A stretch of 64,000 nt of DNA from Coleofasciculus sp. B1-GNL1-01 (GCA_040220235.1 JAVJTO010000055.1); one strand, 5' to 3'. Positions 30,857 to 49,002 are shown, numbered from the stretch's first letter. Numbers and translations: made by a program. Notes: generated by a model not told the origin, from the sequence alone.

Positions 30857-31156
30857 TTAAGTGTTGACAATCAAGGCTTTAATCTGCTCTTTATGGTAGG
30901 AATTCATTAAAAGCTGAGTTACAAGTTCAGGAATAAAAGCTGTATTGTGTAATTTGCAAAGTTGAACAAGTCGATTTATCAATACTGCATCTATCTTTTT
31001 TGACATTACACGCTCGGATTCAGGGAAATTGGCTATGAAAATATATTCGTCATTCTGCTTCTGCGATTGTTGTATTACATAACCAGCTTTGTAAAGCAGG
31101 TAGATCGCCGAACGTAGTTCCCCACGAGTCCGATTGTGTCCGAATACTTCAATCAA
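30857..31156 (-). CDS. Hypothetical protein, possibly the split C-terminus of the NYN gene
   Basis: TTG start overlaps the NYN stop (TTGATTGA); AT-rich. Confidence 0.4.
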   Translation of the reverse strand: MIEVFGHNRTRGELRSAIYLLYKAGYVIQQSQKQNDEYIFIANFPESERVMSKKIDAVLINRLVQLCKLHNTAFIPELVTQLLMNSYHKEQIKALIVNT

Positions 31157-31835
31157 ATGTTTGTTTAACTTGATATAGTTTGACTATCTCAGGTGCGCTT
31201 TGGAGGAATTTCATGAATCCTCCAAACCCCAAGTTATGCTCATCAAATGCCGAGTCAATCTCAAGCATTTCGTTTTTCAGTGTAGAGAGGCTTACGCCGT
31301 CTGGAAATTTACCAAGTACACGTTCCAGCAAATCTAGTGCGTCTTCACGCAGTTGAGTTGTTTTCAGCGAGGCAGATACACCATTAGTAGTTGATTCTTC
31401 ATCAATGTAAATAAATCGATTACAAGATTTCTTGACAGCCTCGCTAAGAGCAGAACGCGGTCCAACACCGACTACAGATTTACCCAACTCTCTTAAACGC
31501 CTAAACAAAGGTGAAAAATCTGAATCTCCAGTGGCAAGCACAATCCATTCCAAATCAGGAATACGAGCCAAGTACTCCATCACATCGACAACAATTTGAA
31601 TGTCAGCGGAGTTTTTACCTTTTACTGGATGATAAACGTGGACAAACTCAAAACCGAGCAAATTCAGCTCTGGCTGACGTACACTGACTGATGCAATACT
31701 GAAATCCCCATACGCTCGACGAACCACTACACGCCCTAACTCATTAGCGCGTTCTAATAACGCTTCTCCTCCATCAGCTTTCAACCAGCCTGATAGGTTT
31801 TCGACATCCAAAAAGATTGCGACTTTTTCTGCCAT
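31149..31835 (-). CDS. NYN-domain ribonuclease with OST-HTH/LOTUS domain
   Basis: AIFLDVENL, KNSADIQIVVD, LATGDSDFSPL; OST-HTH FDEHNLGFGGFMKFLQS. Confidence 0.88.
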   Translation of the reverse strand: MAEKVAIFLDVENLSGWLKADGGEALLERANELGRVVVRRAYGDFSIASVSVRQPELNLLGFEFVHVYHPVKGKNSADIQIVVDVMEYLARIPDLEWIVLATGDSDFSPLFRRLRELGKSVVGVGPRSALSEAVKKSCNRFIYIDEESTTNGVSASLKTTQLREDALDLLERVLGKFPDGVSLSTLKNEMLEIDSAFDEHNLGFGGFMKFLQSAPEIVKLYQVKQTFD

Positions 31836-32084
31836 TTAGGATTCTGCTGAATTATTGCTGAGTTAATTTTTCTCACAGGACACCCTAATTCGCTTATTAT
31901 CCGATACCCAGCGTCAGTCTATCAACAACTTCCTGAAACGGGCAATGCCACGGTTGCTATATTAAGGTTGTTAATCTTCAAGGAAATGTGAGACTATCCG
32001 TCAAGACCATGGCTATAGAATCGGGAAAAATGTACCAGTGCTTGCCTTGCTTCCCCTGCTCTCTAACCCCACCCCAACACTGAT

Positions 32085-33239
32085 TCAGCAGCCCCTATCT
32101 ACAACCCAATCTACCTGATGGGCTTCAGTTAGATCTGGAACCTCTACGCGATCGCGCATCCGTTGCATCACTGTTTCCGGCACTTTGGCAGCGCGAGAAC
32201 GATTGCGCCGCAGCAATTCTTCCCAAGCGGCTTCCAGGTAAACAATGCGAATTCGTGCATGGTAGGCAGAAAATAGATTAATTAAGGACGAACGCAGTTG
32301 GCGAGAGAGATTGGTCGCATTCCAAACAAAGGATTTTTCGGCTCTCATGTAGTCTTTCGCGATCGCTCTTGCTCGCTCCGCTACAGCAGTTTGGTCATCT
32401 TTGGGAGAAATCTTCATCGCTTGTCGCAGTTCATCCAGGGAGATTACTGTCCAATCGGGAAGGTTCTCCTGAATCCAAGAGTCTTTGCCAGCACCCGGTA
32501 ATCCTGACATCAGGACAACCTCGAAGCGAGTGTCATCAAAAGCAGCATAGTTGGGATCGCGATCGTCTTTTTGGAAATAGACAAATCGACTATGATCTGA
32601 GGGGAATGGTTTTGGATAAAATAAGCAATTATTCTCTTGACAATATTCTCGAAAGAACTGAACACGCTCCAGCAGTTCTAGCGGATCGTCACACACGCGA
32701 CCCCGAATATCCGCTTCTGCCAAAAGTGCCAGCAGGTCGCAGCGAATCACTTGACTGGCTTTAATTACGGCACGTTGCGGGTTGGGTTTGTCCCAAAACC
32801 AGAGAGGAAGACTACCATGCTGCACCAGGGAGACAATCGCCTCCCGTTGATGAAAGGGTACGTTGAGTGACCAGAGGATTTGCCGCGCCATTTTTGCCCC
32901 TTGGCGGACATGACCCTTGGAGGTGATCCTGCCATCGGCTTCAATTTCAGTAGCCGCAGGTTTTGCCACATCATGGAGTAAGGCAGCCGCAAATAGAAGC
33001 GATCGCTCAATAGGTGGTAACTCCTGCCAAGCGGGTAATGCAATTAATGCCTCACAAACCAAGCGGGTATGGGTGAGAACATCCCCTTCTGCATGGTAAC
33101 GGGGGTCTTGGGGACAATCCTGAAGGGATTGAAGCCAGTCAAACTCAGCCTGAAGCGATGCCCAATCTAGCGTCCAGTCTGGAGGCGTGGGACACCAGGG
33201 AAATGACCAGCATAAGGATTGAGAAATAGAAGAAGTCAT
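32085..33239 (-). CDS. HD-Pnk: HD phosphoesterase fused to P-loop polynucleotide kinase
   Basis: YHAEGDVLTHT, LLHDVAKP, EADIRGR; C-terminal GLPGAGKDSW, ISLDELR, WNATNL. Confidence 0.88.
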   Translation of the reverse strand: MTSSISQSLCWSFPWCPTPPDWTLDWASLQAEFDWLQSLQDCPQDPRYHAEGDVLTHTRLVCEALIALPAWQELPPIERSLLFAAALLHDVAKPAATEIEADGRITSKGHVRQGAKMARQILWSLNVPFHQREAIVSLVQHGSLPLWFWDKPNPQRAVIKASQVIRCDLLALLAEADIRGRVCDDPLELLERVQFFREYCQENNCLFYPKPFPSDHSRFVYFQKDDRDPNYAAFDDTRFEVVLMSGLPGAGKDSWIQENLPDWTVISLDELRQAMKISPKDDQTAVAERARAIAKDYMRAEKSFVWNATNLSRQLRSSLINLFSAYHARIRIVYLEAAWEELLRRNRSRAAKVPETVMQRMRDRVEVPDLTEAHQVDWVVDRGC

Positions 33240-33273
33240 ATAACACTACATCGTAAGGTGAATGTCGCTGACT

Positions 33274-33377
33274 TAAGCTGGGTTTGTAGTAGGCACTTTA
33301 GTGCCAGAAGCGCTCGCATCGCTTACTACAAACTTTAAATCAGTGGCATCTTTAGCTGGAAACCCAATCACAGCTTA
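33274..33377. mobile_element. MITE-like element (TAAGCTG..CAGCTTA)
   Basis: TA-flanked short TIRs, internal GTAG..CTAC palindrome; lies between the ligase and HD-Pnk genes. Confidence 0.55.
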
Positions 33378-33463
33378 CTGTTTAAGTAGAGGGCAACCTC
33401 TTTCATGGCAGTGATTAGCTCAAGAATCTCCCGTCATAGTCGTAGACTTGACGGCGAGAGTTG

Positions 33464-34243
33464 TCAAAACTGAAACAAATCGACGCCGGGACGTAGGAGA
33501 TTGGGGACGATAGGGCGGTTGAGCCAATGGCTATCCGATTGCAGGATGGTGGTTGAAAAGCTAGGACGGACGTATTTGTAACGAGCCGTTACAGCCGCTC
33601 CCTCTTCAACTTTGATATATAACCCTTCCATCAGGGGACTGGGGTCAGTTTGTTTGAGACTTCGCTCCACATCCAATCCCCGTTCCTCACAGGCTTGACG
33701 GAAGCGTTCTAAATGTCCTGACTCAATGAAATTCGAGTGACCCAGCAATCCCATTAGCTGCTTGTAGGATGTTAATACACCGGAAAACAGGACGGGTACG
33801 GAAACCAGGGGTAATCCGGCGAGTAACTCCTGGCGACGTTGGGTACTGAGAAACTGCTGCTGTTCAACATCTAGCACATCAAATTCTAAGAAATAATGGG
33901 GTAAGGCGTCGTAAAAGACGGTGTGTTTGGCATAGAGCCATTCGCCATAGAGGATGTAGCGATCGCCCAGAACCTGCCAAAACGTTCCAGTATGACTGTA
34001 CGCCCATTGTTTGAACAAGTTAAAGTGTTTTTCTCGCTCTCCTCCAGTTAAATAATGTCCCCGGCTTTGCAACAGCATTTGCCCATCAGGAGTAAAACTG
34101 ATGGCAGCATTGGCTCCATCTACTTTTTCTTCGACTACCACATATTGAGAGGCGATCGCGCTGAAAGGCACGTTATCCAAGTCTTCATCCCCCGGTTGGA
34201 GCCGTGAACCTTGGATATGAGGGGTGCGAGGGAATTTGTACAT
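33464..34243 (-). CDS. ATP-dependent RNA ligase family protein
   Basis: KFPRTPH N-terminus; motif I EEKVDGAN; LYGEW, FLEFDV, MEGLYIK, RYKYVR. Confidence 0.88.
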   Translation of the reverse strand: MYKFPRTPHIQGSRLQPGDEDLDNVPFSAIASQYVVVEEKVDGANAAISFTPDGQMLLQSRGHYLTGGEREKHFNLFKQWAYSHTGTFWQVLGDRYILYGEWLYAKHTVFYDALPHYFLEFDVLDVEQQQFLSTQRRQELLAGLPLVSVPVLFSGVLTSYKQLMGLLGHSNFIESGHLERFRQACEERGLDVERSLKQTDPSPLMEGLYIKVEEGAAVTARYKYVRPSFSTTILQSDSHWLNRPIVPNLLRPGVDLFQF

Positions 34244-34257
34244 CAAATAACAGAAGC

Positions 34258-34347
34258 GTGAACTACTTCAGGTTTAGCGTAGCGGAACCGAGAGCTTCTG
34301 GCTTCACGAGGGAATGTTTCAAGACGGACTTATACCCAACTTTTGAT
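34258..34347 (-). mobile_element. IS605/TnpB right-end (omegaRNA-like) remnant
   Basis: Minus strand reads ..TAAGTCCGTC..CGTGAAGCCAGAAGCTC..GTAGTTCAC, a typical IS605-group 3' end. Confidence 0.55.
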
Positions 34348-34348
34348 A

Positions 34349-34975
34349 TTACCTACCAGCCTTCAACACCTGTTCAGCCGTTAGTTTTAAATCTGGGAAG
34401 GTTGGAGAGACAATAGTCTGATTGCCCCGAAACTGCTGAATTTCATACTCCCCATCCACTAACCTACAGACAGAGAGAGTGGGTTGTTTAGGTTTTCCAA
34501 TATGTCGAGTACCACCTAATCCTGCATAGTCTGCTATCCAATATTCGCAAATGCCCAAAACTGCGTAGTCTTCGACCTTACGGGCATAATCATTTTGCCA
34601 GTTGCTACTAACTACTTCTGCCACAAATTTAATCGAACTGCCTAGCGTTAGGATTGATTGCTCAGACCAAAGCGGTTCTTTGACGAGTTCATCTCGATCA
34701 ACAACTGCAACGTCAGGTCGAAATGCTGTCATACCAACGTTAGAAGGGCGCAATAGTCCCCGCTGAAAGACAAACCAAGGTAAGCCTATTGCGTCAATCT
34801 GGACACAGATATTTGCGCTAATGAAGGCTACAATTTCTTCATGTAAACCTGTTGGTTCCAAATCGAACACCTCTCCGTCGATCAGTTCGTAGCGGTTATC
34901 GCTACCATGACGAGCGAGAAACTCGTCAAAGCTAAGTGGCTTCTGTTGAATTGCCGGATCGACTGCAATGGTCAT
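34349..34975 (-). CDS. Uma2 family endonuclease
   Basis: YELIDGEV, RPDVAV, VAEVVSSNWQNDY..KVEDYAVLGICEYWIAD. Confidence 0.93.
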   Translation of the reverse strand: MTIAVDPAIQQKPLSFDEFLARHGSDNRYELIDGEVFDLEPTGLHEEIVAFISANICVQIDAIGLPWFVFQRGLLRPSNVGMTAFRPDVAVVDRDELVKEPLWSEQSILTLGSSIKFVAEVVSSNWQNDYARKVEDYAVLGICEYWIADYAGLGGTRHIGKPKQPTLSVCRLVDGEYEIQQFRGNQTIVSPTFPDLKLTAEQVLKAGR

Positions 34976-35026
34976 AGGTCAACTGAGTCCAATTAATGCC
35001 TTAAGTCTACCAAATCGAGTATGTGA

Positions 35027-35131
35027 TATAGCAACCGCCATGGCGGTTAGGACACATCATTTATGTAGAGACGTTGCATTTTAGTCTCTACAATGGTGCC
35101 GAAAGTCCTAATCGATGTGTCTACTGCTATA
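35027..35131. mobile_element. MITE (TATAGC...GCTATA family)
   Basis: TATAGC..TTAGGAC / GTCCTAA..GCTATA; internal GTAGAGAC..GTCTCTAC palindrome. Confidence 0.7.
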
Positions 35132-35459
35132 CATAGGACGAATCAAACCTCTGATTGCTTTGCCCCAGAATATTGACAAACTTTCGACTAGAAACCAACC
35201 AAAAATTCAGTCATCTAAGGTTCCGGTTGAGCGGAGACTAACCAACTTGAACGATAGACGAAGAGACTTTTTCTAAGAAATAATCGGGAAAGGAGTCGTA
35301 CAAGACGGCGTGTTTGCTGTATGGTATGGCGGTAGTTAGATAGTTGTTTGCCCTGAGATCGCAGTTCTATGAGTTGAGCGATGGTCGCTACGCGAACCGC
35401 CTTCGGCATCGCCAACGCTATCCTCGTATTATCTCCTATGAATCTATAAGCCTGGAAAA

Positions 35460-35813
35460 ATGCAATTAGAAGATTATTTTGATTTCCTCAGTCCTGATGA
35501 CATTCGGATAAAAGGCACAAGAATAGGGATTGAAACTGTTTTATATGATTTCATCCATCGGTGTCGCACCCCAGAGGAAATTGCCCAGAGTTATCGAACC
35601 CTAGATTTAGAACAAGTCTACGCTACGATTCTATACTATCTGCACAACAAAGAAGCAGTCAGTACCTACCTTGCTAATTGGATTGAGCATGGTCGCAGGA
35701 TGCGAGAGGAACAAAAATACAATCCTCCACCTGTTTCTGAAAAACTGCGGAAACTGAGAGCAGAAAGAGAAGCAATGAGGAAAGCAAGTGGCACTGAAGT
35801 ATCTTTTAGATGA
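35460..35813 (+). CDS. DUF433 antitoxin-like protein
   Basis: IRIKGTRIGIETVL..TPEEIAQSY.TLDLEQVYATILYY. Confidence 0.9.
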   Translation: MQLEDYFDFLSPDDIRIKGTRIGIETVLYDFIHRCRTPEEIAQSYRTLDLEQVYATILYYLHNKEAVSTYLANWIEHGRRMREEQKYNPPPVSEKLRKLRAEREAMRKASGTEVSFR

Positions 35814-36251
35814 GAACGTCGATCGAGTTTATCAAACTCAACTTTTGCGGCAATATCCTGAATTAATTGTTCTTATGGTAGGAGAGCCTGGTAAGCTGTC
35901 ATGCATTTAAATTGGGTATTAGTAGCGAGCAAGATGCTCGCACTACAAGGATTTCATGATTATTGATATTAAGGTTTAAATGCCGAACAGCTTAATCCTC
36001 CCAAAAGCACGCCAGATCCTGAAATTTTATGCTGGTGTGAAGCCAATGGGTTTGTTTTGGTGACTAATAATCGTGCTTCTATGCCTGTACATTTAGCCGA
36101 TCATCTTGCTCAAAATCGCCACATACCTGGTATTTTTATTCTCAATCCCGATCTAGGCATTGGTGGAAATCTCGAAGAATTAATTTTAGCTGCTCTTGCT
36201 TCCGAAGACCATGAGTATCAGGATCGGATTATTTATTTACCTCTGCCATAG
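35788..36251 (+). pseudogene. DUF5615 PIN-like toxin interrupted by a MITE
   Basis: MALKYLLDENV...GEPG | NPPKSTPDPEILCWC..LVTNN; removing the insertion restores the frame. Confidence 0.88.
35892..35994. mobile_element. MITE with 20-bp TIRs and TA target duplication
   Basis: TAAGCTGTCATGCATTTAAA ... TTTAAATGCCGAACAGCTTA (17/20 match); net 101-bp insertion. Confidence 0.9.
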
Positions 36252-36360
36252 AGGATGTAGCGATCGCCCAGCACCTGCCGAAACGTTCCAGTATGACTGT
36301 ACGCCCATTGTTTGAACAAGTTAAAGTCTTTTTCTCGCTCTCCTCCAGTTAAATATGTCC
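36245..36360 (-). repeat. Diverged duplicate of an internal RNA ligase segment (33944-34060)
   Basis: 116/117-bp direct repeat with a few substitutions and a 1-bp indel. Confidence 0.95.
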
Positions 36361-36570
36361 GTTGCGAATTCGTTCCTTAGCTGCTTCCCATGAACTACCT
36401 GAGCCAGGATTCTGCAAATAGGAAGCCTTTCTCTTTGCCAGCTCTTCTTTTTGCCAATCAAGCACAGGAATTTGCTCTGGAATTTGGGCAATGCTGTCCC
36501 ATAAATCTTCCAGCAGTTGTAGTTTTTCCGAGAGGGTTAACTCAAACATTTGAGTGAACTCTGTGTTCAT
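36349..36570 (-). CDS. Addiction-module antitoxin-like protein (TIGR02574-like)
   Basis: LTLSEKLQLLEDLWDSI..WQKEELAKR..SWEAAKERI. Confidence 0.85.
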   Translation of the reverse strand: MNTEFTQMFELTLSEKLQLLEDLWDSIAQIPEQIPVLDWQKEELAKRKASYLQNPGSGSSWEAAKERIRNGHI

Positions 36571-36769
36571 GCTGACCTCACCATCGCAATCGGTGTCTTG
36601 CTTCAAGTTTATCACCGATAACGATATTGCTTCCTCCTCAACGGCGGATGTGCTTGAGGCGGCAAAATGTGCAGGTCAAGAACTGGCTCGATGGTTAGAG
36701 CAATCTAGAAAAGTTGGGTTGAGTCTGTCAAGTCCTTGCTTGTGAATCAGTCGGTAACGTGAAATCCAA

Positions 36770-36869
36770 CATGGCTCGATTAAGCGATCGCACTCTTGTT
36801 TGAGGTGGAGAAGCAGTGATGAGTGTCAGGTTTCATCCCGCAACCCAACCGACAAGATCGGGCGATCGC
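36770..36869. repeat. ~100-bp HIP1-bounded dispersed repeat, copy A
   Basis: Near-identical to 40268-40367; right half also at 37599-37670. Confidence 0.9.
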
Positions 36870-36895
36870 TCACCCAGGATCTTTTCTGAGGCAAT

Positions 36896-37534
36896 TCATG
36901 AATTGTCCCTACACCCAGATGTTATTGCCTCTAATTCCAGTTCGCATTGCCTAAACACATAATTTAGTGCTGCAAAAAGTTGTTCGAGATTATATATCGT
37001 ATAAGCTGCAAAATTCTTGGTAAAACGATTGTTTTGGAGTTTGCCAAACTGCCAAAGCTGACCATTCGATACGATTCCGTATATCGTCTGCTGTTCAGAT
37101 TGGTCATTCATCTTCTGAATCGCCACCATTTCAGCTAAACATTGACCCCATCCTTTAGTAAAATCATCCCGTTTAGCTTCAACAGCGACAAAAAACGGCT
37201 GCTCAAATATTTCTTTTCCTAGAGGCGATCGCTTGGCTATGATATAGTCAGGTACACCGGATAATTTTTCATTATAAATTAGTGACTTGTGGCTCCACAA
37301 AGTAAACTTATCTCGATAAAGCCGATAAAGCTCTTTGAGGACTGGAAAAATAATCGTTTCACAAATCGCATATTCTGACTCCTCAAAGGTTAATTCTTTC
37401 AGGCAAAATTCTAAATCTTCTCTAAATGATTCTCGAATATCAATTTTGCTTTCGATAATATAGTTTGTTTCTGAGGAAGTAATCTCATACTCTTTGAGGA
37501 CTTCCCCAAGATTTTTGTAGGATTCAAAAGACAC
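36896..37534 (-). CDS. Restriction-endonuclease-like hypothetical protein
   Basis: GVPDYII..AVEAKRDDF..GWGQCLAEMVA..YGIVSNG.LWQFGKL. Confidence 0.8.
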   Translation of the reverse strand: MSFESYKNLGEVLKEYEITSSETNYIIESKIDIRESFREDLEFCLKELTFEESEYAICETIIFPVLKELYRLYRDKFTLWSHKSLIYNEKLSGVPDYIIAKRSPLGKEIFEQPFFVAVEAKRDDFTKGWGQCLAEMVAIQKMNDQSEQQTIYGIVSNGQLWQFGKLQNNRFTKNFAAYTIYNLEQLFAALNYVFRQCELELEAITSGCRDNS

Positions 37535-37598: not shown

Positions 37599-37670
37599 TG
37601 TCGGGTTTCATCCTTCAACCCAACCGAAAAAATCGGGCGATCGCATATTGAGTGCATGGGCATTGTTCAA
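37599..37670. repeat. Dispersed repeat, copy B (partial)
   Basis: TGTCGGGTTTCATCCTTCAACCCAACCG..GCGATCGCATATTG.GTGCATGGG.ATTGTTCAA matches 40322-40393. Confidence 0.9.
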
Positions 37671-38002
37671 GCAGCACCATAGTCTGTGTACTGCCGTTTG
37701 TAAGGAGGCTGTAAACCCAACACAATATCTTCTCTCTTGACACCCATTCCAACCAAATCCTCAGCAGGATTCTGGTCTGTCAGATTCTGCTGAAGCCAAA
37801 TTTTTCCGTCTTTGATATCAAAATGGACAATACAACGATAAACTCGGTTAAGCTGTTGCCATCCCACATTCATCCATTGGTAATGATCCCGCTCCGTGTC
37901 CAAGATAAGTTGCACTTCGACCTCATCATCCGAAACATCATCCTTGGCGTACTGGCTCAGTAATGTCTGAATGTACTCCCGATATTGAGCTACCTTGTCC
38001 AT
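37667..38002 (-). CDS. xisI: XisI-family protein
   Basis: DTERDHYQWMNVGW..HFDIKDGKIWLQQN.T..LV.MGV.REDIVLG. Confidence 0.93.
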   Translation of the reverse strand: MDKVAQYREYIQTLLSQYAKDDVSDDEVEVQLILDTERDHYQWMNVGWQQLNRVYRCIVHFDIKDGKIWLQQNLTDQNPAEDLVGMGVKREDIVLGLQPPYKRQYTDYGAA

Positions 38003-38130
38003 TGCACTATCACCTCATTAACTGGATCATACACAATTATCAAGACCTGATACCGTTGCAGGTGCAGTTTGAGTAAATTCGTATTGAAAAACGTTTGGTA
38101 AACATCAACTGGAACTGCCAAGTATAGGCT
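37990..38130 (-). pseudogene. xisH: XisH C-terminal remnant
   Basis: LYLAVPVDVYQTFF..IIVYDPVNEVIVQW overlapping the xisI start; 5' part missing. Confidence 0.8.
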
Positions 38131-38157: not shown

Positions 38158-38787
38158 TCAAGATTGAAGCCAACTTCGCAAGATATTAATTACCACTGGA
38201 GTAAAAGGTTCCATCTGACTCTGTTGGGGTTGTGATAGCTCATCGATTAACATCTCTAAAAGTTCTTCATCCTCTAAGCCTTCATCGGGGTCTATACCAT
38301 TTGTCCATAATAAAGCATTAGACAATTGCTTGCGTTTTTCGATCAAGGCACGGTTATGTTTTTCGTGATCTCCCAAGTTTAAGACTCGGATCGTATCGGT
38401 TGCCCGCTCGCTTAACCCTTCTACCCGACCACTAATTTTAAAGCGAAGTTCTGTTTCACATTCTATCATCAGAGGAGTTAGGGGTAGGGGTTGAGATTTA
38501 TGAGCATCACCGCATTGATTAGAGGTATTACAACTGGCGACAATATTTGAAAAGTCAACTGTGCGTCTAGGATTCAATTTTTGAGCTTCTATATGCTCAT
38601 TGTGGCAAGCATCAATATCTTGGATGCGCTGGCAACAATAGGCACAAAGGTAGAATTGTTCTGATAGAGCATATTGCCGAATAGTTCGGCGAATCTCTTC
38701 GGTTAACTGGTTGTAGCGTCCGTGAGGGTTTGCTCGTTTCCAAACTGTTAAGCTGGAGGGTTCAGTCCCTTTACTAATGGTTCGCAT
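38158..38787 (-). CDS. ptuB: HNH endonuclease, PtuB/Septu-like (TIGR02646-like)
   Basis: EQFYLCAYCC..HNEHI..NIVASC..QCGDAHK; start overlaps the ATPase stop by 14 nt. Confidence 0.85.
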   Translation of the reverse strand: MRTISKGTEPSSLTVWKRANPHGRYNQLTEEIRRTIRQYALSEQFYLCAYCCQRIQDIDACHNEHIEAQKLNPRRTVDFSNIVASCNTSNQCGDAHKSQPLPLTPLMIECETELRFKISGRVEGLSERATDTIRVLNLGDHEKHNRALIEKRKQLSNALLWTNGIDPDEGLEDEELLEMLIDELSQPQQSQMEPFTPVVINILRSWLQS

Positions 38788-40144: not shown

Positions 40145-40267
40145 AGCGGTAACGTTCAAACCTCTGAGGTTTTCGACATTGACAACAGTACCTCAAACGG
40201 TACTTGAAGGCACTTACCCCTATTATGGTCTCAAAACAGTTGCACGTAGCCAGTTTCATCCCAGTCT

Positions 40268-40393
40268 CATGACTCGATTGAGTGATCGCACTCTTGTTTG
40301 AGGTGGAGAAGCAGTGATGAGTGTCAGGTTTCATCCTTCAACCCAACCGACAAGATCGCGCGATCGCATATTGGGTGCATGGGTATTGTTCAA
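40268..40393. repeat. Dispersed repeat, copy C (longest)
   Basis: Spans the sequences of both copy A and copy B. Confidence 0.9.
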
Positions 40394-40602
40394 CGGCGAC
40401 GTGCCTTAAACCTGAGTGGGTCATCAGTACACTGCTCTTTTTGAAGCGCTCGTTTGGTTTTTATGCAAAAATACCGCTAGTTGTTGCAAAACTTTACAGG
40501 CTGGTGAGTGTGTAGCACGGACGTGAAACTCACTCGTGGCAAACAGTAAAAAGTTTGCCTTATCTAAGGGCGCTGTCAACGTAAGTAGTGTGTACAGGAG
40601 CA

Positions 40603-41460
40603 ATGGAATCAAACGTTTTAACCGCAATTTTTCTTCCCTTAGCCCTATTTATCATTATGCTGGGTATGGGATTAGGGTTGACAGTTGATGATTTCAAGCG
40701 GGTACTGGTTGAACCATTAGCCGCAATTCTTGGACTCATTGCTCAGCTTATCATGCTGCCCGCCGTAGGCTTTTTACTGGCTAGCCTTTTCCCGCTTTCT
40801 CCAGAATTGGCGGTTGGCGTAATGGTTTTAGCGGCTTGCCCTGGCGGACCCACATCCAACCTGGTAACCTACTTAGTACAGGGTAACGTTGCCCTATCGA
40901 TTACGCTGACGGCAATTAGCAGCGTGATTACAGTATTTACGATTCCTTTGGTCGTTAACCTAGCGATGCAGCGTTTTCTGGGGGAGGCTACTATCCTAGA
41001 GCTACCCTTCTTGACGACGGTCATTCAAATTGCTGTCATTACCCTGATTCCAGTGATATTAGGCATGGTAATTCACCACTACGCTCCTCGTTTTGCGGCT
41101 TATGTGGAAAAGTGGGTCAAGTGGCTCTCTCTATTCTTTTTAGCCCTAATTATCGTGGGTTTGTTGGCAGCAGAACGCGCTAATGTTGCCAGCTTCTTCT
41201 TGAAAGTGGGCTGGGTTACCCTCGCTTTAAACATGAGTACAATGCTACTGGGGTTTGCACTCGCCACCTTGGCTAAGCTAGATATCCGCAGCGCCAAAGC
41301 CATTACGGTAGAAGTCGGTATTCAAAACGGTACTTTAGCCATTACCATTGCCAGCGCACCAACTCTTTTGAACACGCCAAGCATGGCTATTCCAGCCGCC
41401 ATCTATAGCTTAATCATGTTCGCAACAAGTGCCGTCTTTGCTGGGTTAGCGCGACGTTGA
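40603..41460 (+). CDS. Bile acid:sodium symporter family transporter
   Basis: MLGMGLGL, ACPGGPTSN, EVGIQNG. Confidence 0.93.
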   Translation: MESNVLTAIFLPLALFIIMLGMGLGLTVDDFKRVLVEPLAAILGLIAQLIMLPAVGFLLASLFPLSPELAVGVMVLAACPGGPTSNLVTYLVQGNVALSITLTAISSVITVFTIPLVVNLAMQRFLGEATILELPFLTTVIQIAVITLIPVILGMVIHHYAPRFAAYVEKWVKWLSLFFLALIIVGLLAAERANVASFFLKVGWVTLALNMSTMLLGFALATLAKLDIRSAKAITVEVGIQNGTLAITIASAPTLLNTPSMAIPAAIYSLIMFATSAVFAGLARR

Positions 41461-41612: not shown

Positions 41613-42092
41613 TCACAGCTTCTTGAAGTATCTGGCAACTGGTAATAGCTCGAAACCTACCTTTTCATAGGTGTGACGGGCTGGGGCATGACCAGGATCG
41701 CCTCCAGTTTCAACCATAGCAATAGACATCCCAGCATCTTTCATCCAAGCCAGAGCAAATTCTATCAAAGCACTACCAATGCCGTGACCTTGAAAGTCTG
41801 GATCGACAGCAACCATGTAGATTTCACCCATGCTGTCCTCTGAGTGTAGTTTCACAGCTACAAAGCCCACAGTAGAATCGGCATCGATAGCAACCCATAC
41901 ATTCGTATCTTCCGCAGCACAGACATCCTCGACAGCTTTTTGCTGACTCACACGCCAATGATTGGGATAGAATGCCTGGTACACATCAGCGTTCATCACG
42001 TTCTGAATCGAATCAAAGACCGGAGTCCATGCCCGAAGCGAAAGACGAATAATAGCATCCAGGTGGCGAGGGTCGTATGGTTCAATTTGCAT
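41613..42092 (-). CDS. GNAT family N-acetyltransferase
   Basis: VAVDPDFQGHGIGSAL, YEKVGF. Confidence 0.92.
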   Translation of the reverse strand: MQIEPYDPRHLDAIIRLSLRAWTPVFDSIQNVMNADVYQAFYPNHWRVSQQKAVEDVCAAEDTNVWVAIDADSTVGFVAVKLHSEDSMGEIYMVAVDPDFQGHGIGSALIEFALAWMKDAGMSIAMVETGGDPGHAPARHTYEKVGFELLPVARYFKKL

Positions 42093-42341: not shown

Positions 42342-43034
42342 GTGTCTATCTGGATTATTCGTCATGCTGAAAGTTGCTCTAATGCTGGGTCGCCAACCAT
42401 CGGACCGCATGATAATGGCTTGAGTGAATTGGGCTACCGACAATCAAAATGTATTCCAACCACCGTGAAACAGTCTCCAGACTTAATTGTGACTTCACCT
42501 TATCTGAGAACGCAACTCACGGCTCAGCCATTGATTGAACAATTTCCACATACACCCATTGAGGTTTGGCAAATTCAGGAATTTACCTATCTAAGCCTAC
42601 CGCTCGACCAACCAACCACACCTTTGATTCGCAAACCTCTGAGCAAAGCTTATTGGGATCGCTGCGACCCTGAATATGTGGATGGAGCCAACGCTGAATC
42701 GTTGGTTCAACTGATGGAACGAGTCCGAAATGCTCTGAACCAGTTGCAACAACAATCCGGTTTTGTGGTTGTCTTTTCACATGGATTCTTTATCAAAGCG
42801 ATGCTGTGGCAGATTTTGGCTAACCCAACGGTAATTGATGCCGTTGCCATGCGTCGGCTTTTAGGATTTTCCCGAGGATTTCGAGTACCGAATGCATCAA
42901 TTTTGCAGATGGAATTTGACTCAAGTGGGATACCTCACTGGAGTTCCTTCATCACCAATCATCTGCCACCGGAGCTAGAATCGGCAACACCCGATGCAAC
43001 AGTGGCGAGTGATGCAGGCGATCAACCTTCATGA
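42342..43034 (+). CDS. Histidine phosphatase (phosphoglycerate mutase family)
   Basis: IRHAES, SPYLRTQLT, FSHG, PNAS. Confidence 0.9.
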   Translation: MSIWIIRHAESCSNAGSPTIGPHDNGLSELGYRQSKCIPTTVKQSPDLIVTSPYLRTQLTAQPLIEQFPHTPIEVWQIQEFTYLSLPLDQPTTPLIRKPLSKAYWDRCDPEYVDGANAESLVQLMERVRNALNQLQQQSGFVVVFSHGFFIKAMLWQILANPTVIDAVAMRRLLGFSRGFRVPNASILQMEFDSSGIPHWSSFITNHLPPELESATPDATVASDAGDQPS

Positions 43035-43107
43035 CCTATCTTTTAGGGGGGAAAGTAACCAAAGTGTTACCAAATGCCAAATAGATAACTTTGTCTAGAA
43101 CAGTAGC

Positions 43108-43357
43108 TTGTAGTATATTGGTAGTACGACTCAACCCCTCATTGTTTCGTGAGCGATCGCTCAGACTTTGCCTCAGGCAAATCGTAGCACCGTTGCTTCC
43201 AGAGGGACAAGGCCGCATACATTACACCCCTTGGCGAAGGTATGTCAGAGCAAAGAGTCCAGAAGAAAAAAATGGCGACGATTCGTGAAGTCTACGATCG
43301 CATTCTCTGGGATGCACGTCTAGACCGCAGCGCCTTTGCGATCGGCTATATCGAGCG
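43108..43357 (+). pseudogene. Truncated duplicate of the upstream region and first 39 codons of the poly(A) polymerase fusion gene
   Basis: 250-bp diverged direct repeat of 44814-45063; encodes MSEQRVQKKKMATIREVYDRILWDARLDRSAFAIGYIER, then breaks. Confidence 0.93.
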
Positions 43358-43362
43358 TATGT

Positions 43363-44742
43363 CTATTGAGCAAACTTATCCGTGGGTGTAATAACTATAG
43401 TTACTGATGACATTACTTCATAAGGTCTAGTGATTTCCTGGTAATTATCTTCATGAAGTCTTATGTGTGTAATATCTGGAAATAATGCTGGTTCTATAGG
43501 ATATAAAGCGTTTGGATTATGAAACATTACTATACTCTCTGACCATGTTTCTCGATATGATGGATGATCGATATCAATTGAGAAAGGAATTGGTTCAAAT
43601 GCTTCTGGATCTGGATCGAAGAGCTTGCCAACTCTAATCATTTTGATAGCTTGACTACCAAGACCAGCAAGCTTTCCCATTCTATTGAACTTTGTAATAG
43701 TTGCACTATTGGTAAATAAAACTGCGCTGATGTTCTCGGTCTCTGGAAGTTTGAAAAAACCTGATGGGATTCTTTTTCCCTCATACTCATGAAAATCAAT
43801 ATCTTCTTTAACTATGCTGCTATTGCCGTTACTATCCTTTGTCAGTCTGATGCGTTTAGCATAGAGGTAGTCCGACAAAGCAGTTCTTGACCAAACCATT
43901 GATCCGGTCTGGTGATAATCATGTATCGCAATTACCAATGGCTTACCACGGACATGTTCCTTTTCCCAATATTTCTTATTTAGCTTTGAGTAAAGAGGAC
44001 TTCCAAACTTGATAGGCATATAATGCCTAAGCCGTTCGTCTAAATCTTCTTGACTCGTTGGTTCTGGCAAGTCTTGTTTGTGTCTACTAGGATTGACGGT
44101 AACAGCCTCAATACAGATTATCTGATTAAATCGCTCTACAACATAATCAGGAGCGTTGAAAGAACGATCTATTTTAAAGCCCGACTCATGAAGATAAACA
44201 TATAGAAAAATTTCCCAGAGTCTTGAATCAAAACCACTTGTTTGAAAGTCCCGAATAAAATTACCATCGGGATCAGTGAATGTATAAATAATCTCTTCAA
44301 TTAGATTTCGAGCCGCCTCAAATCTAGGTTCTTCAACCAAGTAGCGGAAATAAGGATGTAGTTTTTCTGGTGCAACGATTTGTTTATAGATGTATTGAGG
44401 CGGACTATCCTCATCTCCTTGAGGATATTGTTCGTGCTCTTCCTGACTAAACTCAGTTAACTTTTTTTCAAGCTCCTTGCGTGCATCTTCAATAGAATTA
44501 AAGCTAACTCCAGTGTAGATGCAACGGTAATTTTTGCGTGTGTCTCGACCAAAAATTACAAAATTCCAATCGTTATCAAACTTATCGATGAATATATTTG
44601 CAATAAGAATTTTTCGTTCGTCAGTGTACCACTCGACTTCCTTATTAATAGTAAAAGCCTCTGTTTCCGGCTTAATTCCTCTGACAAGCGGATCGCGAAC
44701 ATAGCACAGAGCATTAAAGTACTCTTGAGAGATAGGGTGCAT
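43363..44742 (-). CDS. Hypothetical protein with PD-(D/E)XK-like nuclease motif, probably foreign
   Basis: FDSRLWE..APDYVV..ICIEAVT; AT-rich; no HIP1 octamer seen in 1.4 kb. Confidence 0.7.
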   Translation of the reverse strand: MHPISQEYFNALCYVRDPLVRGIKPETEAFTINKEVEWYTDERKILIANIFIDKFDNDWNFVIFGRDTRKNYRCIYTGVSFNSIEDARKELEKKLTEFSQEEHEQYPQGDEDSPPQYIYKQIVAPEKLHPYFRYLVEEPRFEAARNLIEEIIYTFTDPDGNFIRDFQTSGFDSRLWEIFLYVYLHESGFKIDRSFNAPDYVVERFNQIICIEAVTVNPSRHKQDLPEPTSQEDLDERLRHYMPIKFGSPLYSKLNKKYWEKEHVRGKPLVIAIHDYHQTGSMVWSRTALSDYLYAKRIRLTKDSNGNSSIVKEDIDFHEYEGKRIPSGFFKLPETENISAVLFTNSATITKFNRMGKLAGLGSQAIKMIRVGKLFDPDPEAFEPIPFSIDIDHPSYRETWSESIVMFHNPNALYPIEPALFPDITHIRLHEDNYQEITRPYEVMSSVTIVITPTDKFAQ

Positions 44743-44947
44743 TGCAGAAACTCTAGAACCTTAAATTGCAATAAATTGGCTGACACTTAGCTTTTCGTGG
44801 CAACCAAATACTATTGTAGTATATTAGTAACACACCTGAACCCCTCATTGTTTCGTTAGCGATCGCTCAGACTTTGCCTCAGGCAAATCGTAGCACCGTT
44901 GCTTCCAGAGGGACAAGGCAGCATACATCACACCCCTTGGCGTAGCC

Positions 44948-47900
44948 ATGTCAGAGCAAAAAGTCCAGAAGAAAAAAATGGCGACGATTCGCGAGATCTA
45001 CGATCGCATTCTCTGGGATGCACGTCTAGACCGCAGCGCCTTTGCCATCGGCTATATCGAGCGCAGGTCTGAAGAAGGTATCCGCGAAAAACCATTTACC
45101 TCTTGGTCAACCGATGGAGACATCCCATTGCATCGCATCCGCTATATACGCTGCGGGGAGGAAATCGTTTGGGATCGCGACCAGCACTTGGATCTGTTCT
45201 CGGCAGGACAACTGCCTGATGCTGCCTTTCTAGCGCATCCCCAAGAGGAGACACATTGGGCTACAGTCACACCTCCTGCACAAAGCCAACACCTACTATT
45301 CAAGCCACGATCGGCCTACCAGTACAGTTCACAAGGTTGGCAACCAACTGACCAACCGTCAACAGAGACAACAATAGGTACGCTGACCATTGCCAGTTTT
45401 AACGTGCTGTGCGACAGCTACGAGCAGGAACGCATCCAGACAGCACAACGCCTGCCTGTGATTGTAGAACATCTGCGCCGATGCGATGCGGATATTATCG
45501 CGCTACAAGAAGCGACGCCACCCCTGCTAGACGTGTTGTTAAAACAGGATTGGGTACACTCTTACACCATTTCTGAATCACCCGAAGGACAAACTCTAAA
45601 GCCCTATGGTGTTTTGCTTCTATCGCGACTGCCGTTTACGCTGGTCGAGCATCAGTATTCGGCGCACAAGCGGGTGCTGGTGGGAACCTGGCAGATTAAC
45701 GGGCGATCGCTACATTTAGCCGTCGTGCATCTGACCAGCAATCGCGCCCGCAATGCTCTTGAAGTCCGGGCAAATCAACGTTCTGTATTACTGGAGTATC
45801 TCAAGACGCTGCCAGGAGAGAGTTTCATTGTTGGAGATTTCAACAGCCGAGGGGATGAGCCAGAGGAGGAGTTGAGCCAAAGCGGTTTTGTCGATGTTTG
45901 GACGCTGCTGCATCCTGATGATCCAGGCTACACCTTTGACCCAGAACGTAACCCGCTAGCCACATTGATGAGTTTGAACGGTGAGGCGGCGCGGTTTGAT
46001 CGCATCTTACAGCGCAGTGAAGATGGGTGCTGGATGCCTCGTTCGATGGAGTTGTTTGCCTGCGAACCTGTAGCGGATACCCAAGGAACCCTTTACCCCT
46101 CCGATCATTTCGGCATCCGTGCCGTTTTGGATTACTCAACGCCCACAATAGCAGCGTTGCAGACAGTGCCGCCAGTCTATCGGAGTGCAGTTGTGGTGAT
46201 TCCCTCGGCTGATGTGTTACCTGCGATTCAAGCAATTCGCCACCGATATGATCGCAGGTTCCACCGTTGGATGCCGCACATCAATTTGCTGTATGGCTTT
46301 GTGCCAGAGGAGTATTTTGAAGAAGCAGCGCAAGCGATCGCACTTGCACTTGCCCAATGGCAACCCTTTGAGATAACGCTCACCAGCTTTGAGGCATTCA
46401 AGCACCGCTCTAGCTGTACGGCATGGTTGCGCCCCGTTGCCCAACCCCCAGATGCACTCCATCAGTTGCAAGCCGTTCTCCAGCAGTTGTTCCTGCAGTG
46501 CGACGAGCAAAGCCAGAAGTCAGCAGCAGGGTTTACACCGCATCTGAGCGTCGGTCAGTTTCCCACTGCACAGGAAGCCAAAACCCAGCTTCCTTCCTGG
46601 CATCCAGTGAGTTTTCTCGTGAACTCCGTAGCCCTGATTAGCCGTCGCGGTGATGAGCCGTTTGAGGTGCGATACAGGGTGCATTTAGGGCAAGAGAGCA
46701 AGGATTGTAGAGACGCGCCATGGCGCGTCTGGGAAGCTGGGGAAGAGACAACTAACCTAATGCAGCGACTGAACCACCTCGAACCCGAGCTGAGTCAGGA
46801 GCAACGCCAGCATCGCGAAACCATTTTGGCATTAGTCGAGCAAGCTTGTGCCGAGTGTTTGGGTTTCCCGGTATCCCTGCATCGAGTAGGTTCGGCACGT
46901 TTGGGCGTGCAGAGTCCGCAAAGCGATTTAGATGTTCTTTGCCTGATTCCCGCGTATCTGTCTGGGGAGGCGTTTTTGGAAAGCGTGGGACAACGCTTGG
47001 AGGGATTATGCGATCGCGCCCAAGTCGTCTCATCTGCCAAGATACCTCTGTTAAGGATGGGATTTGAAGGCGTGTCTGTTGATCTCCTGTATGCCCGCTA
47101 TCCTTCTGATCTAGGCACAGTTGAGCCGTTCACAGAGGCAGCACGACCCTTTTTTGATCCAGTGAGTTGGAAAGCACTGGTGGGTTGTTTGGAAGCTGAT
47201 ATCCTTACAGCTATAGTACGCCAGTCTGTACCGCTAGCGTCTTTCCGGCAGCTTTTGAGGGCAGTGCGGGCGTGGGCGAAGGCACGCCAGATTCACGGCA
47301 ATGCTTGGGGGTTTCTGGGTAGCTTTTCCTGGGCATTGCTGGCGGCTTGGAGTTGCACTCGTTTTCCCGAAGCGGGTGCGGATACAGGGCTTGAGGCATT
47401 ACTTGCTCATTTTTTCCAGGTACTCAACCAACAGGATTGGAGTCAGCCTGTAGCCTTGACCCCAGCAGGTAAACAATACCAGAAATTGCCCTATGACTGG
47501 CTACCTGTCATCACCTCCATTGAACCCTGTCAAAACAGCGCTCGTAATGTCACGCGATCAACTGCCCAGATTTTGCGCCGCGAATTCGAGCGAGGGGCCG
47601 CTATTTCAGAGCAAGTGTTGGCTGGCAAAATAGGTTGGGACGCTCTTTTCGAGATAGCTGATTTACCGACGCAATCCGATTCGTTCTTGGTGCTGACGGC
47701 AACCTGTGACAACAACGATCGCTTGTCAGCTTGCTGCGGGTGGCTGGAAGGTCATGCGATCGGATTGGTCATCGCTCTGGAACAGCAACTCGATCTGTAT
47801 GTTAGACCTTGGACTGGGATTCTGAAAGGGCAAAACAGGATTTGCGCGGTGTTAGGATTAAACTCTTCCCAAGACTTTGATGATGTTGCAATTGAGCAGG

Positions 47901-48013
47901 TTGGTCGAGATTTTGTTCTTCAGTTCAATGCTGATTCTAATGGCAGTATGTTGGAGTGTGTGGCGTGCGATCGCGTTACACTTGTCCAATATGTAAACCT
48001 GCCTGCCAAATAA
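44948..48013 (+). CDS. Multidomain RNA end-repair protein: MJ1316/DUF504 + EEP + 2H phosphoesterase + eukaryote-type poly(A) polymerase
   Basis: IYDRILWD..IGY..IPLHRIRY..IVWDR; ASFNV/LQE/GDFN/FDRI/SDHFG; PHINL and PHLSV; GSARLG..SDLDVL..VDL; RAVRAWAKARQI..GFLGSFSWALL; QNSARNV. Start 44948 or 44978. Confidence 0.9.
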   Translation: MSEQKVQKKKMATIREIYDRILWDARLDRSAFAIGYIERRSEEGIREKPFTSWSTDGDIPLHRIRYIRCGEEIVWDRDQHLDLFSAGQLPDAAFLAHPQEETHWATVTPPAQSQHLLFKPRSAYQYSSQGWQPTDQPSTETTIGTLTIASFNVLCDSYEQERIQTAQRLPVIVEHLRRCDADIIALQEATPPLLDVLLKQDWVHSYTISESPEGQTLKPYGVLLLSRLPFTLVEHQYSAHKRVLVGTWQINGRSLHLAVVHLTSNRARNALEVRANQRSVLLEYLKTLPGESFIVGDFNSRGDEPEEELSQSGFVDVWTLLHPDDPGYTFDPERNPLATLMSLNGEAARFDRILQRSEDGCWMPRSMELFACEPVADTQGTLYPSDHFGIRAVLDYSTPTIAALQTVPPVYRSAVVVIPSADVLPAIQAIRHRYDRRFHRWMPHINLLYGFVPEEYFEEAAQAIALALAQWQPFEITLTSFEAFKHRSSCTAWLRPVAQPPDALHQLQAVLQQLFLQCDEQSQKSAAGFTPHLSVGQFPTAQEAKTQLPSWHPVSFLVNSVALISRRGDEPFEVRYRVHLGQESKDCRDAPWRVWEAGEETTNLMQRLNHLEPELSQEQRQHRETILALVEQACAECLGFPVSLHRVGSARLGVQSPQSDLDVLCLIPAYLSGEAFLESVGQRLEGLCDRAQVVSSAKIPLLRMGFEGVSVDLLYARYPSDLGTVEPFTEAARPFFDPVSWKALVGCLEADILTAIVRQSVPLASFRQLLRAVRAWAKARQIHGNAWGFLGSFSWALLAAWSCTRFPEAGADTGLEALLAHFFQVLNQQDWSQPVALTPAGKQYQKLPYDWLPVITSIEPCQNSARNVTRSTAQILRREFERGAAISEQVLAGKIGWDALFEIADLPTQSDSFLVLTATCDNNDRLSACCGWLEGHAIGLVIALEQQLDLYVRPWTGILKGQNRICAVLGLNSSQDFDDVAIEQVGRDFVLQFNADSNGSMLECVACDRVTLVQYVNLPAK

Positions 48014-48177
48014 CTAGAGCGCCAGTCCAGTAATCAAAATCGATACTAGAATCTACGACAATCTGTAAATGTTTGTGGAAATTTGTCAAGTTAGCCGGGA
48101 ATATATTAACAGTAGAATCCTTGTTTAATAAGGCTTTCAGGTAGTTTAAGATAGAGGCGGATAAAAGAGGGTACTAT

Positions 48178-48666
48178 CTAGAGGGGACTACCTGTCGGGA
48201 ATAGCAGTGCTAATCGCTTTTCCCGGAGTTTAGCCTCTTCAGTACAAATCTCTTCAATCTGCTTTACAATTTCTGCATCAACACCAACTTTAGCTGCCAT
48301 TTTGGTAACAGTTTCCCGCTCTCCGCTACTATATTCACCATCCGCTGAGCAAGCCCTGATCGCGTCATAGACAAGATAGCGTCGAGACGCATTTGCTGCG
48401 GCATCTCTAGAAATAACTGAATCAATGTCTTCATCCGCCTCATCCGCCGGGTAAGTTTTGAGTTTTTCAACCACTTGATCAGGGGCGCCAAGGGCTGATG
48501 CGTACCCAACAATCCAATCTCGTTCCGCCTGAGTTAACTCATTATCGCCATTGGCACAAATCAATAACGATTTCATATAACTATCGTAGGAAGAAGATCC
48601 TGGAATATCGTTCAAACCGCATCTCTCAGCGAAAATCCAATAAACACCTTCTTTTCGGGTAGACAT
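48178..48666 (-). CDS. TerB-like helical protein
   Basis: ANGDNELTQAE and ACSADGEYSSGE repeats typical of the TerB fold; AGGAG RBS. Confidence 0.6.
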   Translation of the reverse strand: MSTRKEGVYWIFAERCGLNDIPGSSSYDSYMKSLLICANGDNELTQAERDWIVGYASALGAPDQVVEKLKTYPADEADEDIDSVISRDAAANASRRYLVYDAIRACSADGEYSSGERETVTKMAAKVGVDAEIVKQIEEICTEEAKLREKRLALLFPTGSPL

Positions 48667-49002
48667 AATCCGATTACTCCTGATCAATATTTGACGGGCT
48701 GGTAGGGAGCTTTATGCCTTACCATCCCAACTAAAAAGAATAACAAAATATCGGCTTACTGTAAAGCTAAAATCAATTAATTTTTTATCTGAATTAACCT
48801 CTTAATAAATGGACAAGGCGGCACTTGTTTCTGTCTCGTGATAAGTCTCTACAAAAGTACCGTTCACCCAGTCAACACAGCGCTTTGCATCTAATACCAA
48901 ATCCGGGTTAGCCACCCCCCTTATAAGCTAGTCCGCGCAGGCTGACTTTGTTTGTGTAGCTGCGACTTCTAGTCGCTAGGGCAAAAAAGGGGTTCCTTAT
49001 GC

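Follow-up and report, generated by a model that had tools for sequence, protein, structure and literature searches.

The locus described here raises the question of whether genes for mending broken nucleic acid, found side by side with nuclease and defence genes, belong with those neighbours or with one another. The window analyzed is a stretch of 64,000 nucleotides from Coleofasciculus sp. B1-GNL1-01 (GCA_040220235.1, JAVJTO010000055.1; G000:C55:32001-96000, the genome being G000 below). Within it, a locus between the genes for acetolactate synthase (29061-30707) and for an ABC substrate-binding protein (49003-50346) encodes an ATP-dependent ligase, an HD-Pnk protein, and a fusion of MJ1316, EEP, 2H and poly(A) polymerase (PAP) domains. 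An original prediction, made from the DNA alone, described this region as a conflict island in which RNA-cleaving abortive defence is coupled to two alternative recovery routes, religation and 3' tailing. Genes were assigned by Pfam, PADLOC and NCBIfam profile searches, and every gene that the original prediction had named was found where it had been placed (Table 1). The analysis leads us to predict that the ligase, HD-Pnk and the fusion probably constitute a single nucleic-acid end-repair system, most likely for RNA, which at this site is surrounded by unrelated cargo.

The ligase gene is located directly upstream of the HD-Pnk gene in the same orientation, with a gap of 225 bp. This pair and the fusion gene are arranged head-to-head and point apart, with 10.7 kb between them. 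The catalytic motifs of all three proteins are intact; all catalytic residues checked are kept, and those of the fusion are invariant in 32 homologues. The ligase is a lone nucleotidyltransferase domain without an OB or DNA-binding domain. Its motif I (KVDG, with K41) and residues R62, E102, E207 and K224 are invariant in 33 homologues. Its fold is nearest to that of Naegleria Rnl (Z score of 15.6, root-mean-square deviation (RMSD) of 3.2 over 189 aligned residues), followed by T4 Rnl2 (Z score of 13.5), and the top ten fold matches are all RNA ligases. HD-Pnk has the domain organization of the Runella type, an N-terminal HD domain with its metal ligands and a C-terminal P-loop kinase. H57, H89-D90, H110, D177, GLPGAGKD, D269, R272 and R349 are present, and the protein probably carries the predicted 2',3'-phosphoesterase and 5'-kinase functions. 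A complex prediction for ligase and HD-Pnk scored 0.00, which gives no answer on their interaction.

The fusion comprises MJ1316 (residues 11–77), a TDP2-like EEP domain (143–396), a 2H domain (410–581), and PAP with an RNA-binding domain (597–1017), connected by flexible linkers in the AlphaFold model (pLDDT 83.4, pTM 0.48). Superposition of residues 597–1017 on bovine PAP (1q78) resulted in a Z score of 37.3 and an RMSD of 2.5 over 410 aligned residues, the C-terminal RNA-binding domain included, whereas terminal uridylyltransferase-type enzymes align with Z scores of 23–24 over residues 599–906 only. The profile search also assigned the segment to canonical PAP (E 3e-59). The catalytic set consists of the GS motif (G648-S649) and D660, D662 and D712, the aspartates being invariant in 32/32 homologues; certain pocket residues differ from those of the mammalian enzyme in the alignment. 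As modeled, the polymerase has the complete architecture of a canonical eukaryote-type PAP, with catalytic, central and C-terminal RNA-binding domains. The EEP domain appears closest to TDP2, both by fold (Z score of 27.1, compared with 22.8 for nocturnin and 20.9 for ANGEL2, also with Foldseek) and by profile (E 1e-18 for TDP2 and 4e-5 for CCR4-type enzymes). Its residues N152, E188, H261, D297, N299, D351, D386 and H387 are invariant in the 32 homologues; 5'-phosphotyrosyl hydrolysis is its predicted activity. As enzymes that share a fold can differ in activity, the lower score of ANGEL2 does not decide on a 2',3'-cyclic phosphatase of that type. The 2H domain aligns with YjcG with a Z score of 18.0. 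H444 and H532 are invariant, the second motif being HLS and the first HIN here (N in 18/32 homologues, T in 14/32). Database entries label this large family as poly(A) polymerase or RNA repair protein. Its closest named members are from Coleofasciculus and related cyanobacteria, look-alikes occur in rotifers and fungi, and the fusion was found in five records of the plasmid collection and in none of the phage collection. Stand-alone EEP paralogues are encoded elsewhere in this genome (G000:C157:140082-140885 and C119:58843-59601) and also in all 8 other genus genomes.

The evidence that the three genes belong together comes from distant relatives. An alignment of 32 fusion sequences yielded 79 loci from the GTDB collection, drawn from the best 80 of 102 relatives. 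In 30 of the 79 loci, HD-Pnk is encoded within the fetched flank (10 kb) of the fusion, and 28 of these have it in the same orientation at a distance of up to about 1.1 kb. The order ligase, HD-Pnk, fusion occurs in 26 cyanobacterial loci (two of them on contigs that begin within or past the ligase gene) of Argonema, Nostoc, Calothrix, Rivularia, Mastigocoleus, Chamaesiphon and other genera, and two Bacteroidota loci have the order ligase, Rnl2, fusion, HD-Pnk. The genes flanking the linked operon differ between genera. A phylum-wide search with the PAP part recovered 1 of 400 genomes, too few for a linkage test.

A third layout is found in Actinomycetes, where the full fusion is present in 6/250 genomes. 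At a threshold of 1e-50, HD-Pnk was detected in 0/6 of these, and the apparent lack of a ligase-kinase partner proved to be a threshold artefact: relaxed searches identified a fused ligase-kinase of about 600 aa, encoded immediately upstream of the fusion and co-oriented with it in 6/6 genomes, a layout also present in 2/2 further records (Nonomuraea, Embleya). The middle part of this protein aligns with the end of the HD domain. By eye, at the position read from the alignment, the HD pair is missing in 6/6 proteins, and the HD site appears to have been lost in actinomycetes.

The association extends to genomes in which the genes are apart. Of the 49 unlinked loci, 47 (46 genomes) were searched genome-wide, two short-contig loci being excluded, and HD-Pnk was found elsewhere in 42 of the 46 genomes (E 1e-74 or better), usually with its ligase. 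Unlinked HD-Pnk is present in 9/9 Bacteroidota compared with a background of 3/200 (class of G713), and in 5/6 of the loci labeled Myxococcota compared with 1/150 (phylum of G725); the fusion is absent from the four HD-Pnk-positive background genomes. The reverse dependence fails. The ligase occurs in 71 of 400 genomes of its own order, 22 of which have a long fusion match, 13 of these within 10 kb on the ligase contig; one further fusion stands beside HD-Pnk at a contig end, and 49 of the 71 genomes lack the fusion. That the genes have no functional link, and occupy a common hotspot or were transferred together as one block, is an account that holds for the cargo and draws on the mosaic locus with its gene remnants and mixed alleles, and on the many genomes that carry the parts unlinked. 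For the three core genes it is highly improbable and largely refuted by the three different layouts across three phyla, among them that of the distinct fused ligase-kinase, and by co-occurrence far above background even without linkage.

Since the fusion is nearly always accompanied by a ligase-kinase partner and the pair often lacks the fusion, we consider it likely that the fusion is an accessory of one pathway and not a separate route. The two alternative recovery routes fit this one-sided dependence less well than one pathway with an add-on. The bases for a single system are the linkage in three phyla and three layouts, the one-sided co-occurrence, the motifs and the folds. The canonical PAP, MJ1316, 2H, the Rnl-type ligase fold and the extra Rnl2 in Bacteroidota point to RNA over DNA. 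Judging from the respective families, MJ1316 would bind the cyclic-phosphate end, 2H would open the cyclic phosphate, HD would remove the leftover phosphate, the kinase would phosphorylate the 5'-OH, and the TDP2-like domain may unblock the 5' end. PAP would add AMP to the freed 3'-OH, either replacing lost nucleotides prior to sealing or tailing fragments that cannot be sealed, and the ligase would seal the ends. The fusion would thereby broaden the range of ends handled by the ligase/kinase pair. The ends to be mended may stem from ribotoxin attack or from abiotic damage. In this genus the operon is split into its head-to-head form and the locus has turned into a hotspot.

Several observations weigh against one RNA-repair system. 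The 79 loci were drawn by two peptide patterns and are biased to close relatives. The pair is not nearby in 49/79 loci, and in 35 of the 48 blank loci each side spans 3 kb or more; G171 and G530 carry ligase and fusion far apart, and linkage is hence not obligatory. On a FastTree tree of 76 fusion proteins, which carries long-branch warnings and no bootstrap, the linked state requires 7 changes compared with 24 in shuffles. The cyanobacterial cases are kin, may trace to few events and are hence not independent; the linkage argument rests on the three layouts in three phyla. Within the genus the repair set decays, all three genes being whole in G000 and probably G007 out of nine genomes. The best match of the EEP domain is a DNA-repair enzyme. 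The accessible text of two reports adds that the Deinococcus ligase/HD-Pnk operon serves radiation resistance (PMC6300522) and that the Runella ligase sealed none of the tested 3'-OH/5'-PO4 substrates (PMC6097658). Expression data do not bear on the matter: metatranscriptome contigs from four runs cover genes and intergenic DNA alike and are therefore uninformative on transcription, and the thin coverage of the NYN, PD-T7-1 and TerB genes is no proof of absence. The promoter scan on the ligase side was at chance level (5 found, 4.9 expected).

The same observations could mean that the three genes serve chiefly in the repair of DNA or mixed ends following desiccation, ultraviolet or oxidative damage, as in Deinococcus, with the TDP2-like domain stripping protein or chemical adducts from 5' ends. 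We regard this as unlikely. It agrees with the proximity of EEP to TDP2 by profile and fold, and with the location of the operon, which is usually among housekeeping, not defence, genes. It also agrees with the available part of the Deinococcus report, in which DR_B0100-B0098 is radiation-induced and the kinase is required for resistance (PMC6300522), and with the title of a paper on Runella HD-Pnk, which terms it a DNA/RNA end-healing enzyme. However, canonical PAP, MJ1316 and 2H belong to families that act on RNA, the ligase contains neither an OB nor a DNA-binding domain while its ten best fold matches are RNA ligases, and an Rnl2 is inserted in the Bacteroidota operon. Moreover, the likeness to the Deinococcus proteins is by description, not by direct sequence comparison.

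A more specific form of RNA repair has a minor chance of being correct. The ligase may be unable to use plain 3'-OH/5'-P ends and may need an end prepared by the fusion, in a widespread bacterial RNA-repair pathway. The prepared end could be a 2'-phosphate/3'-OH made by 2H, in which case the route would resemble that of Trl1, divided among several proteins and completed by Tpt1; alternatively, PAP could lengthen the 3' end. The TDP2-like domain would remove 5' adducts. Such a pathway would account for both the inactivity of the Runella ligase and the apparent loss of the actinomycete HD site beside the fusion, and canonical PAP would acquire a role in bacterial repair. On the other side, the fusion is missing in 49 of the 71 ligase genomes, and Tpt1 is not resolvably commoner in operon genomes. 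Tpt1 was found in 24/27 operon, 15/20 ligase-only and 25/33 pair-less genomes (12 of 92 intended genomes were dropped by a size limit), and this similar presence in all three sets makes it uninformative as a marker of a Trl1-like route. In G000 the Tpt1 gene is on contig C89, outside the locus.

Parts of the proposed RNA-repair system have been predicted in print; the system itself is conserved, and it is present here in split form. A literature search that did not cover Burroughs and Aravind 2016 retrieved no account of this operon and no experiment on the fusion. That 2016 survey reportedly predicted MJ1316-containing or 'Swiss Army Knife' multidomain RNA-repair proteins with the same domain set, and the operon may therefore already be in print as a prediction. 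MJ1316 has been described as a reader of cyclic ends that is fused to repair domains (PMC6514570, in the part available). The ligase/HD-Pnk pair is known from Runella slithyformis, in a cluster of ligase, HD-Pnk, Tpt1 and methyltransferase-HIT genes; the accessible text states the natural substrate as an open question and reports the ligase to be inactive on standard ends (PMC6097658). The ligase is directly upstream of HD-Pnk and the domain order is the same in both organisms, whereas the present locus has no Tpt1 or methyltransferase-HIT gene, the partner is the fusion, and the 225-bp gap replaces an overlap. Deinococcus radiodurans DR_B0100/B0099/B0098 likewise combines a stand-alone ligase, which reportedly needs partners, with an HD-Pnk kinase, but that operon includes PARG in place of the PAP fusion, the likeness resting on the description in the part of the report available (PMC6300522). 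RlaP/CCA-type Pol-beta transferases beside RNA ligases are predicted, in the accessible part of PMC7824862, to refill ends before ligation. Both are template-independent transferases; the present one is the full three-domain canonical PAP that resembles the bovine enzyme.

The combination of ligase, 5'-kinase and a predicted 2H cyclic phosphodiesterase is shared with fungal Trl1 and Tpt1, most plainly in the actinomycete layout (PMC6097658, in the text available). In the fungal system, sealing depends on a 2'-phosphate that Tpt1 then takes off. Here, two or three genes encode the set, the ligase of 260 aa is too short to include the Trl1 C-terminal domain, and HD, EEP and PAP are additional. 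Identity with Trl1 was rejected owing to the separate genes, the one-domain ligase, and the Trl1 fold match with a Z score of 11.5. The Pnkp-Hen1 system was also rejected (TIGR04075 31 bits, cut-off 750; no methyltransferase among the scanned locus proteins). The linkage names a candidate partner for the HD-Pnk-linked ligase, such that the substrate question is testable with three purified proteins, two in actinomycetes, and it places a complete eukaryote-type PAP with a TDP2-like domain in a bacterial repair operon.

Two neighbouring genes of the operon in other organisms deserve mention. In five non-cyanobacterial genomes a methyltransferase of ~232 aa is encoded directly upstream of the ligase (L175:2052-2777, L177:7946-8644, L178:4135-4851, L182:3994-4686 and L183:7918-8613). 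It has weak matches to 3jwi and 3jwg, presumably Hen1 domains, which are not its best ones, and a Hen1 assignment was not reached; the protein could be a junction-methylating partner. At L083:8615-9517 an ADP-ribosylglycohydrolase gene is located directly upstream of the fusion and recalls the PARG of the Deinococcus operon.

The defence genes are a separate matter. The adjacent PtuA ATPase and PtuB HNH genes constitute, as had been proposed, a PtuAB pair, here of Septu type, and their motifs are intact; a crude scan of 26-54 kb revealed no YxDD open reading frame (ORF) of a reverse transcriptase, and the PtuAB proteins do not reach the retron Ec78 NCBIfam cut-offs. By analogy with E. coli Septu, which cleaves tRNA-Tyr according to the accessible text of PMC13096335, the pair is predicted to act in phage defence by tRNA cleavage. 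A functional coupling of RNA cleavage by Septu, NYN and PIN to the repair genes, which would let the cell recover, is favoured by the intact Septu. PtuAB is at the locus in 7/7 genus genomes read, and in G647, of another genus, it is 5.5 kb from the ligase. Similarly, in G023 (L033:5432-15721) a type III CRISPR system with Cas10 and a CARF/Card1-like gene is directly beside ligase/HD-Pnk, a PIN gene adjoins the fusion in L064, and PtuB-like genes occur somewhere in 21/35 operon genomes, a count without a control set.

Such coupling, or a local use of repair against Septu damage, is nevertheless quite improbable. HNH, PIN and NYN nucleases depend on metal ions, and their products normally have 3'-OH/5'-P ends, for which no healing is needed. 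By tblastn, PtuAB was near the fusion in one of the 79 loci, a same-genus genome, and NYN, PD-T7-1 and the histidine phosphatase in none. PtuB-like genes are present in 0/6 actinomycete and 0/2 Bacteroidota operon genomes. Septu remains intact despite repair loss, with a ligase remnant in G001, an HD deletion in G006 and no whole fusion in G004 and G008. In G000, PIN is disrupted and NYN truncated. When 200 cluster representatives of 380 neighbouring ORFs from 29 linked loci were searched with PADLOC at 1e-10, 14 matched, comprising scattered Uma2, methylase, ATPase, TnpB-like and repeat domains; PtuA/B, PD-T7-1 and NYN were not among the 14, and no system recurs. PADLOC thus identified Septu and PD-T7-1 at this locus without revealing a recurring defence system beside linked operons elsewhere. 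Recurrent neighbourhoods, to which the original prediction had looked for support, were found far above chance for the repair genes and not, outside this family, for the RNase and defence genes. Of the proposed 18-kb island, the cohesion of the repair genes is supported, the coupling to RNase and defence genes is not, and the caveat that co-location may reflect an insertion hotspot was right for the cargo. Septu is a long-standing resident of the locus within the family, outside the repair system. Septu and PD-T7-1, the latter not mentioned in the original prediction, as neither were the bile-acid-type symporter and GNAT genes, are ordinary members of known families with intact ORFs and are passengers of the locus, so a defence-island reading adds little.

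Comparison within the genus showed how the cargo is exchanged. The locus was read in 7/9 genomes, those of G005 and G007 being broken by contig ends, and the cargo is different in every relative read. The fusion gene is complete in G000 and G006, interrupted by a contig end in G007 and G002, and reduced to a remnant in G003 and G004; searches did not find it in G001, G005 or G008. In G006 HD-Pnk has lost most of its HD domain, and in G001 HD-Pnk was not found and the ligase is a remnant only. PtuAB is intact in five genomes (G000, G001, G004, G006 and G008). Cargo elsewhere includes patatin and cyclase genes of the cyclic-oligonucleotide-based antiphage signalling (CBASS) type and phytochelatin synthase in G003, glycosylation genes in G002, and a sodium symporter in G008. 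In G003, the patatin and split CD-NTase genes (L031:14971-17249, CBASS-type) occupy the slot of PD-T7-1. The head-to-head arrangement is also seen in G018, of another genus, where the two halves are separated by 4.7 kb of other genes.

Table 1 Features of the locus, numbered from the first nucleotide of the window.
Feature	Position	Strand	Evidence and remarks
ATP-dependent ligase, nucleotidyltransferase domain alone, 260 aa	33464-34246	-	PF09414 E 5e-37; repair core
HD-Pnk (HD phosphoesterase and P-loop 5'-kinase), 384 aa	32085-33239	-	Pfam HD, AAA_33; repair core
MJ1316, TDP2-like EEP, 2H and canonical PAP fusion	44948-48013	+	Pfam, model; repair core
PtuA (38774-40159) and PtuB (38158-38787), Septu-type, intact	38158-40159	-	PADLOC PtuA1 554 bits, PtuB1 323 bits
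PD-T7-1 defence gene, 459 aa, cargo	43363-44742	-	PADLOC 580 bits
Copy of fusion-gene upstream region and first codons, 257 bp, 93%	43108-43364	+	Second copy 44814-45070
NYN/OST-HTH gene with 221-bp deletion, ORFs 31149-31835 and 30857-31156, cargo	30857-31835	-	
DUF433 (35460-35813, intact) and disrupted DUF5615/PIN toxin (about 35788-36251), cargo	35460-36251	+	
Partial ligase-gene remnant, 97% to 33944-34060	36245-36360	-	Second remnant at 35271-35316
Uma2-type PD-(D/E)XK gene, cargo	34349-34975	-	15 similar genome copies
Orphan addiction-module antitoxin (TIGR02574), cargo	36349-36615	-	No toxin beside antitoxin
PD-DExK gene, cargo	36896-37534	-	PADLOC search
XisI (37667-38002) and XisH remnant, cargo	37667-38130	-	
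SBF (bile-acid-type) symporter, cargo	40588-41460	+	Pfam
GNAT, cargo	41613-42092	-	Pfam
Histidine phosphatase, cargo	42342-43034	+	Pfam
TerB-like gene, cargo	48178-48687	-	Weak Pfam match, E 4e-4, below Pfam cut-off

The individual cargo genes are in varying states. PD-(D/E)XK-type genes, as had been foreseen, are present (the Uma2-type and PD-DExK genes), and the proposed TerB-like gene is there as a weak match. The NYN/OST-HTH gene exists, but is 221 bp shorter than the 399-aa allele of G003; since the NYN and first OST-HTH domains are still in frame, residual NYN activity is possible. Among same-genus loci this gene is found only in G003, at another place in the locus, and in G007, with the same deletion. 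In the proposed toxin-antitoxin pair DUF433 is intact, but the PIN toxin, whole in G006, is cut at about 35892-35992 by a repeat element of 101 bp, for which BLAST gave 329 hits genome-wide. This short element (35892-35995, also 50674-50931) carries terminal inverted repeats around 21-bp units that vary in number, is present in about 220-330 genome copies, and occurs elsewhere in the locus in G003 and G005. The PD-DExK gene is beyond the fusion 3' end in G002, G004 and G006, the TerB-like gene is also in G001, G007 and G008, and the histidine phosphatase gene is in G004 alone besides G000 among the genus loci read. PD-T7-1 was not found at the locus of any relative.

On its flanks the cargo has short duplicated pieces of genes, and other ligase-gene remnants are found in G006, G004, G002 and G001. 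PD-T7-1 sits between two copies of the fusion-gene 5' end, which are 93.8 and 90.3% identical to G018, and 91.4 and 95.7% to G003. As the two copies best match the alleles of different relatives, between-strain recombination probably took place there. The locus is an insertion/recombination hotspot, in which Septu, PD-T7-1, toxin-antitoxin pieces and metabolic genes come and go independently; its GC content is unremarkable and a scan of the window detected no tRNA gene.

The repeats at the locus were also inspected. HIP1 (GCGATCGC) is present at window positions 33959/36260, 36784, 36862, 43153/44859 and 47967. Throughout the G000 genome it occurs in 23 of 54 low-copy direct repeats located 0.3-8 kb apart, compared with 5.6 in random stretches (maximum 13 of 500), a count that is inflated because either copy was counted and some repeats are related. 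In G002 and in four sequencing runs PD-DExK is joined to the fusion 3' end exactly at a HIP1 site, with 8 shared letters in the runs. The HIP1 pattern fits HIP1-guided cassette shuffling. A further repeat, which we take to be REP-doublet-like, has three copies in the locus (36713-36869, 37599-37670 and 40268-40403) and no other close copy in the genome; it recurs several times around differing cargo in G002, G003, G004, G006, G008 and G018 and may be a cassette exchange site. Finally, a long 9-bp tandem array (50347-50724) is located beside the 21-bp array, and the 9-bp unit is very abundant genome-wide.

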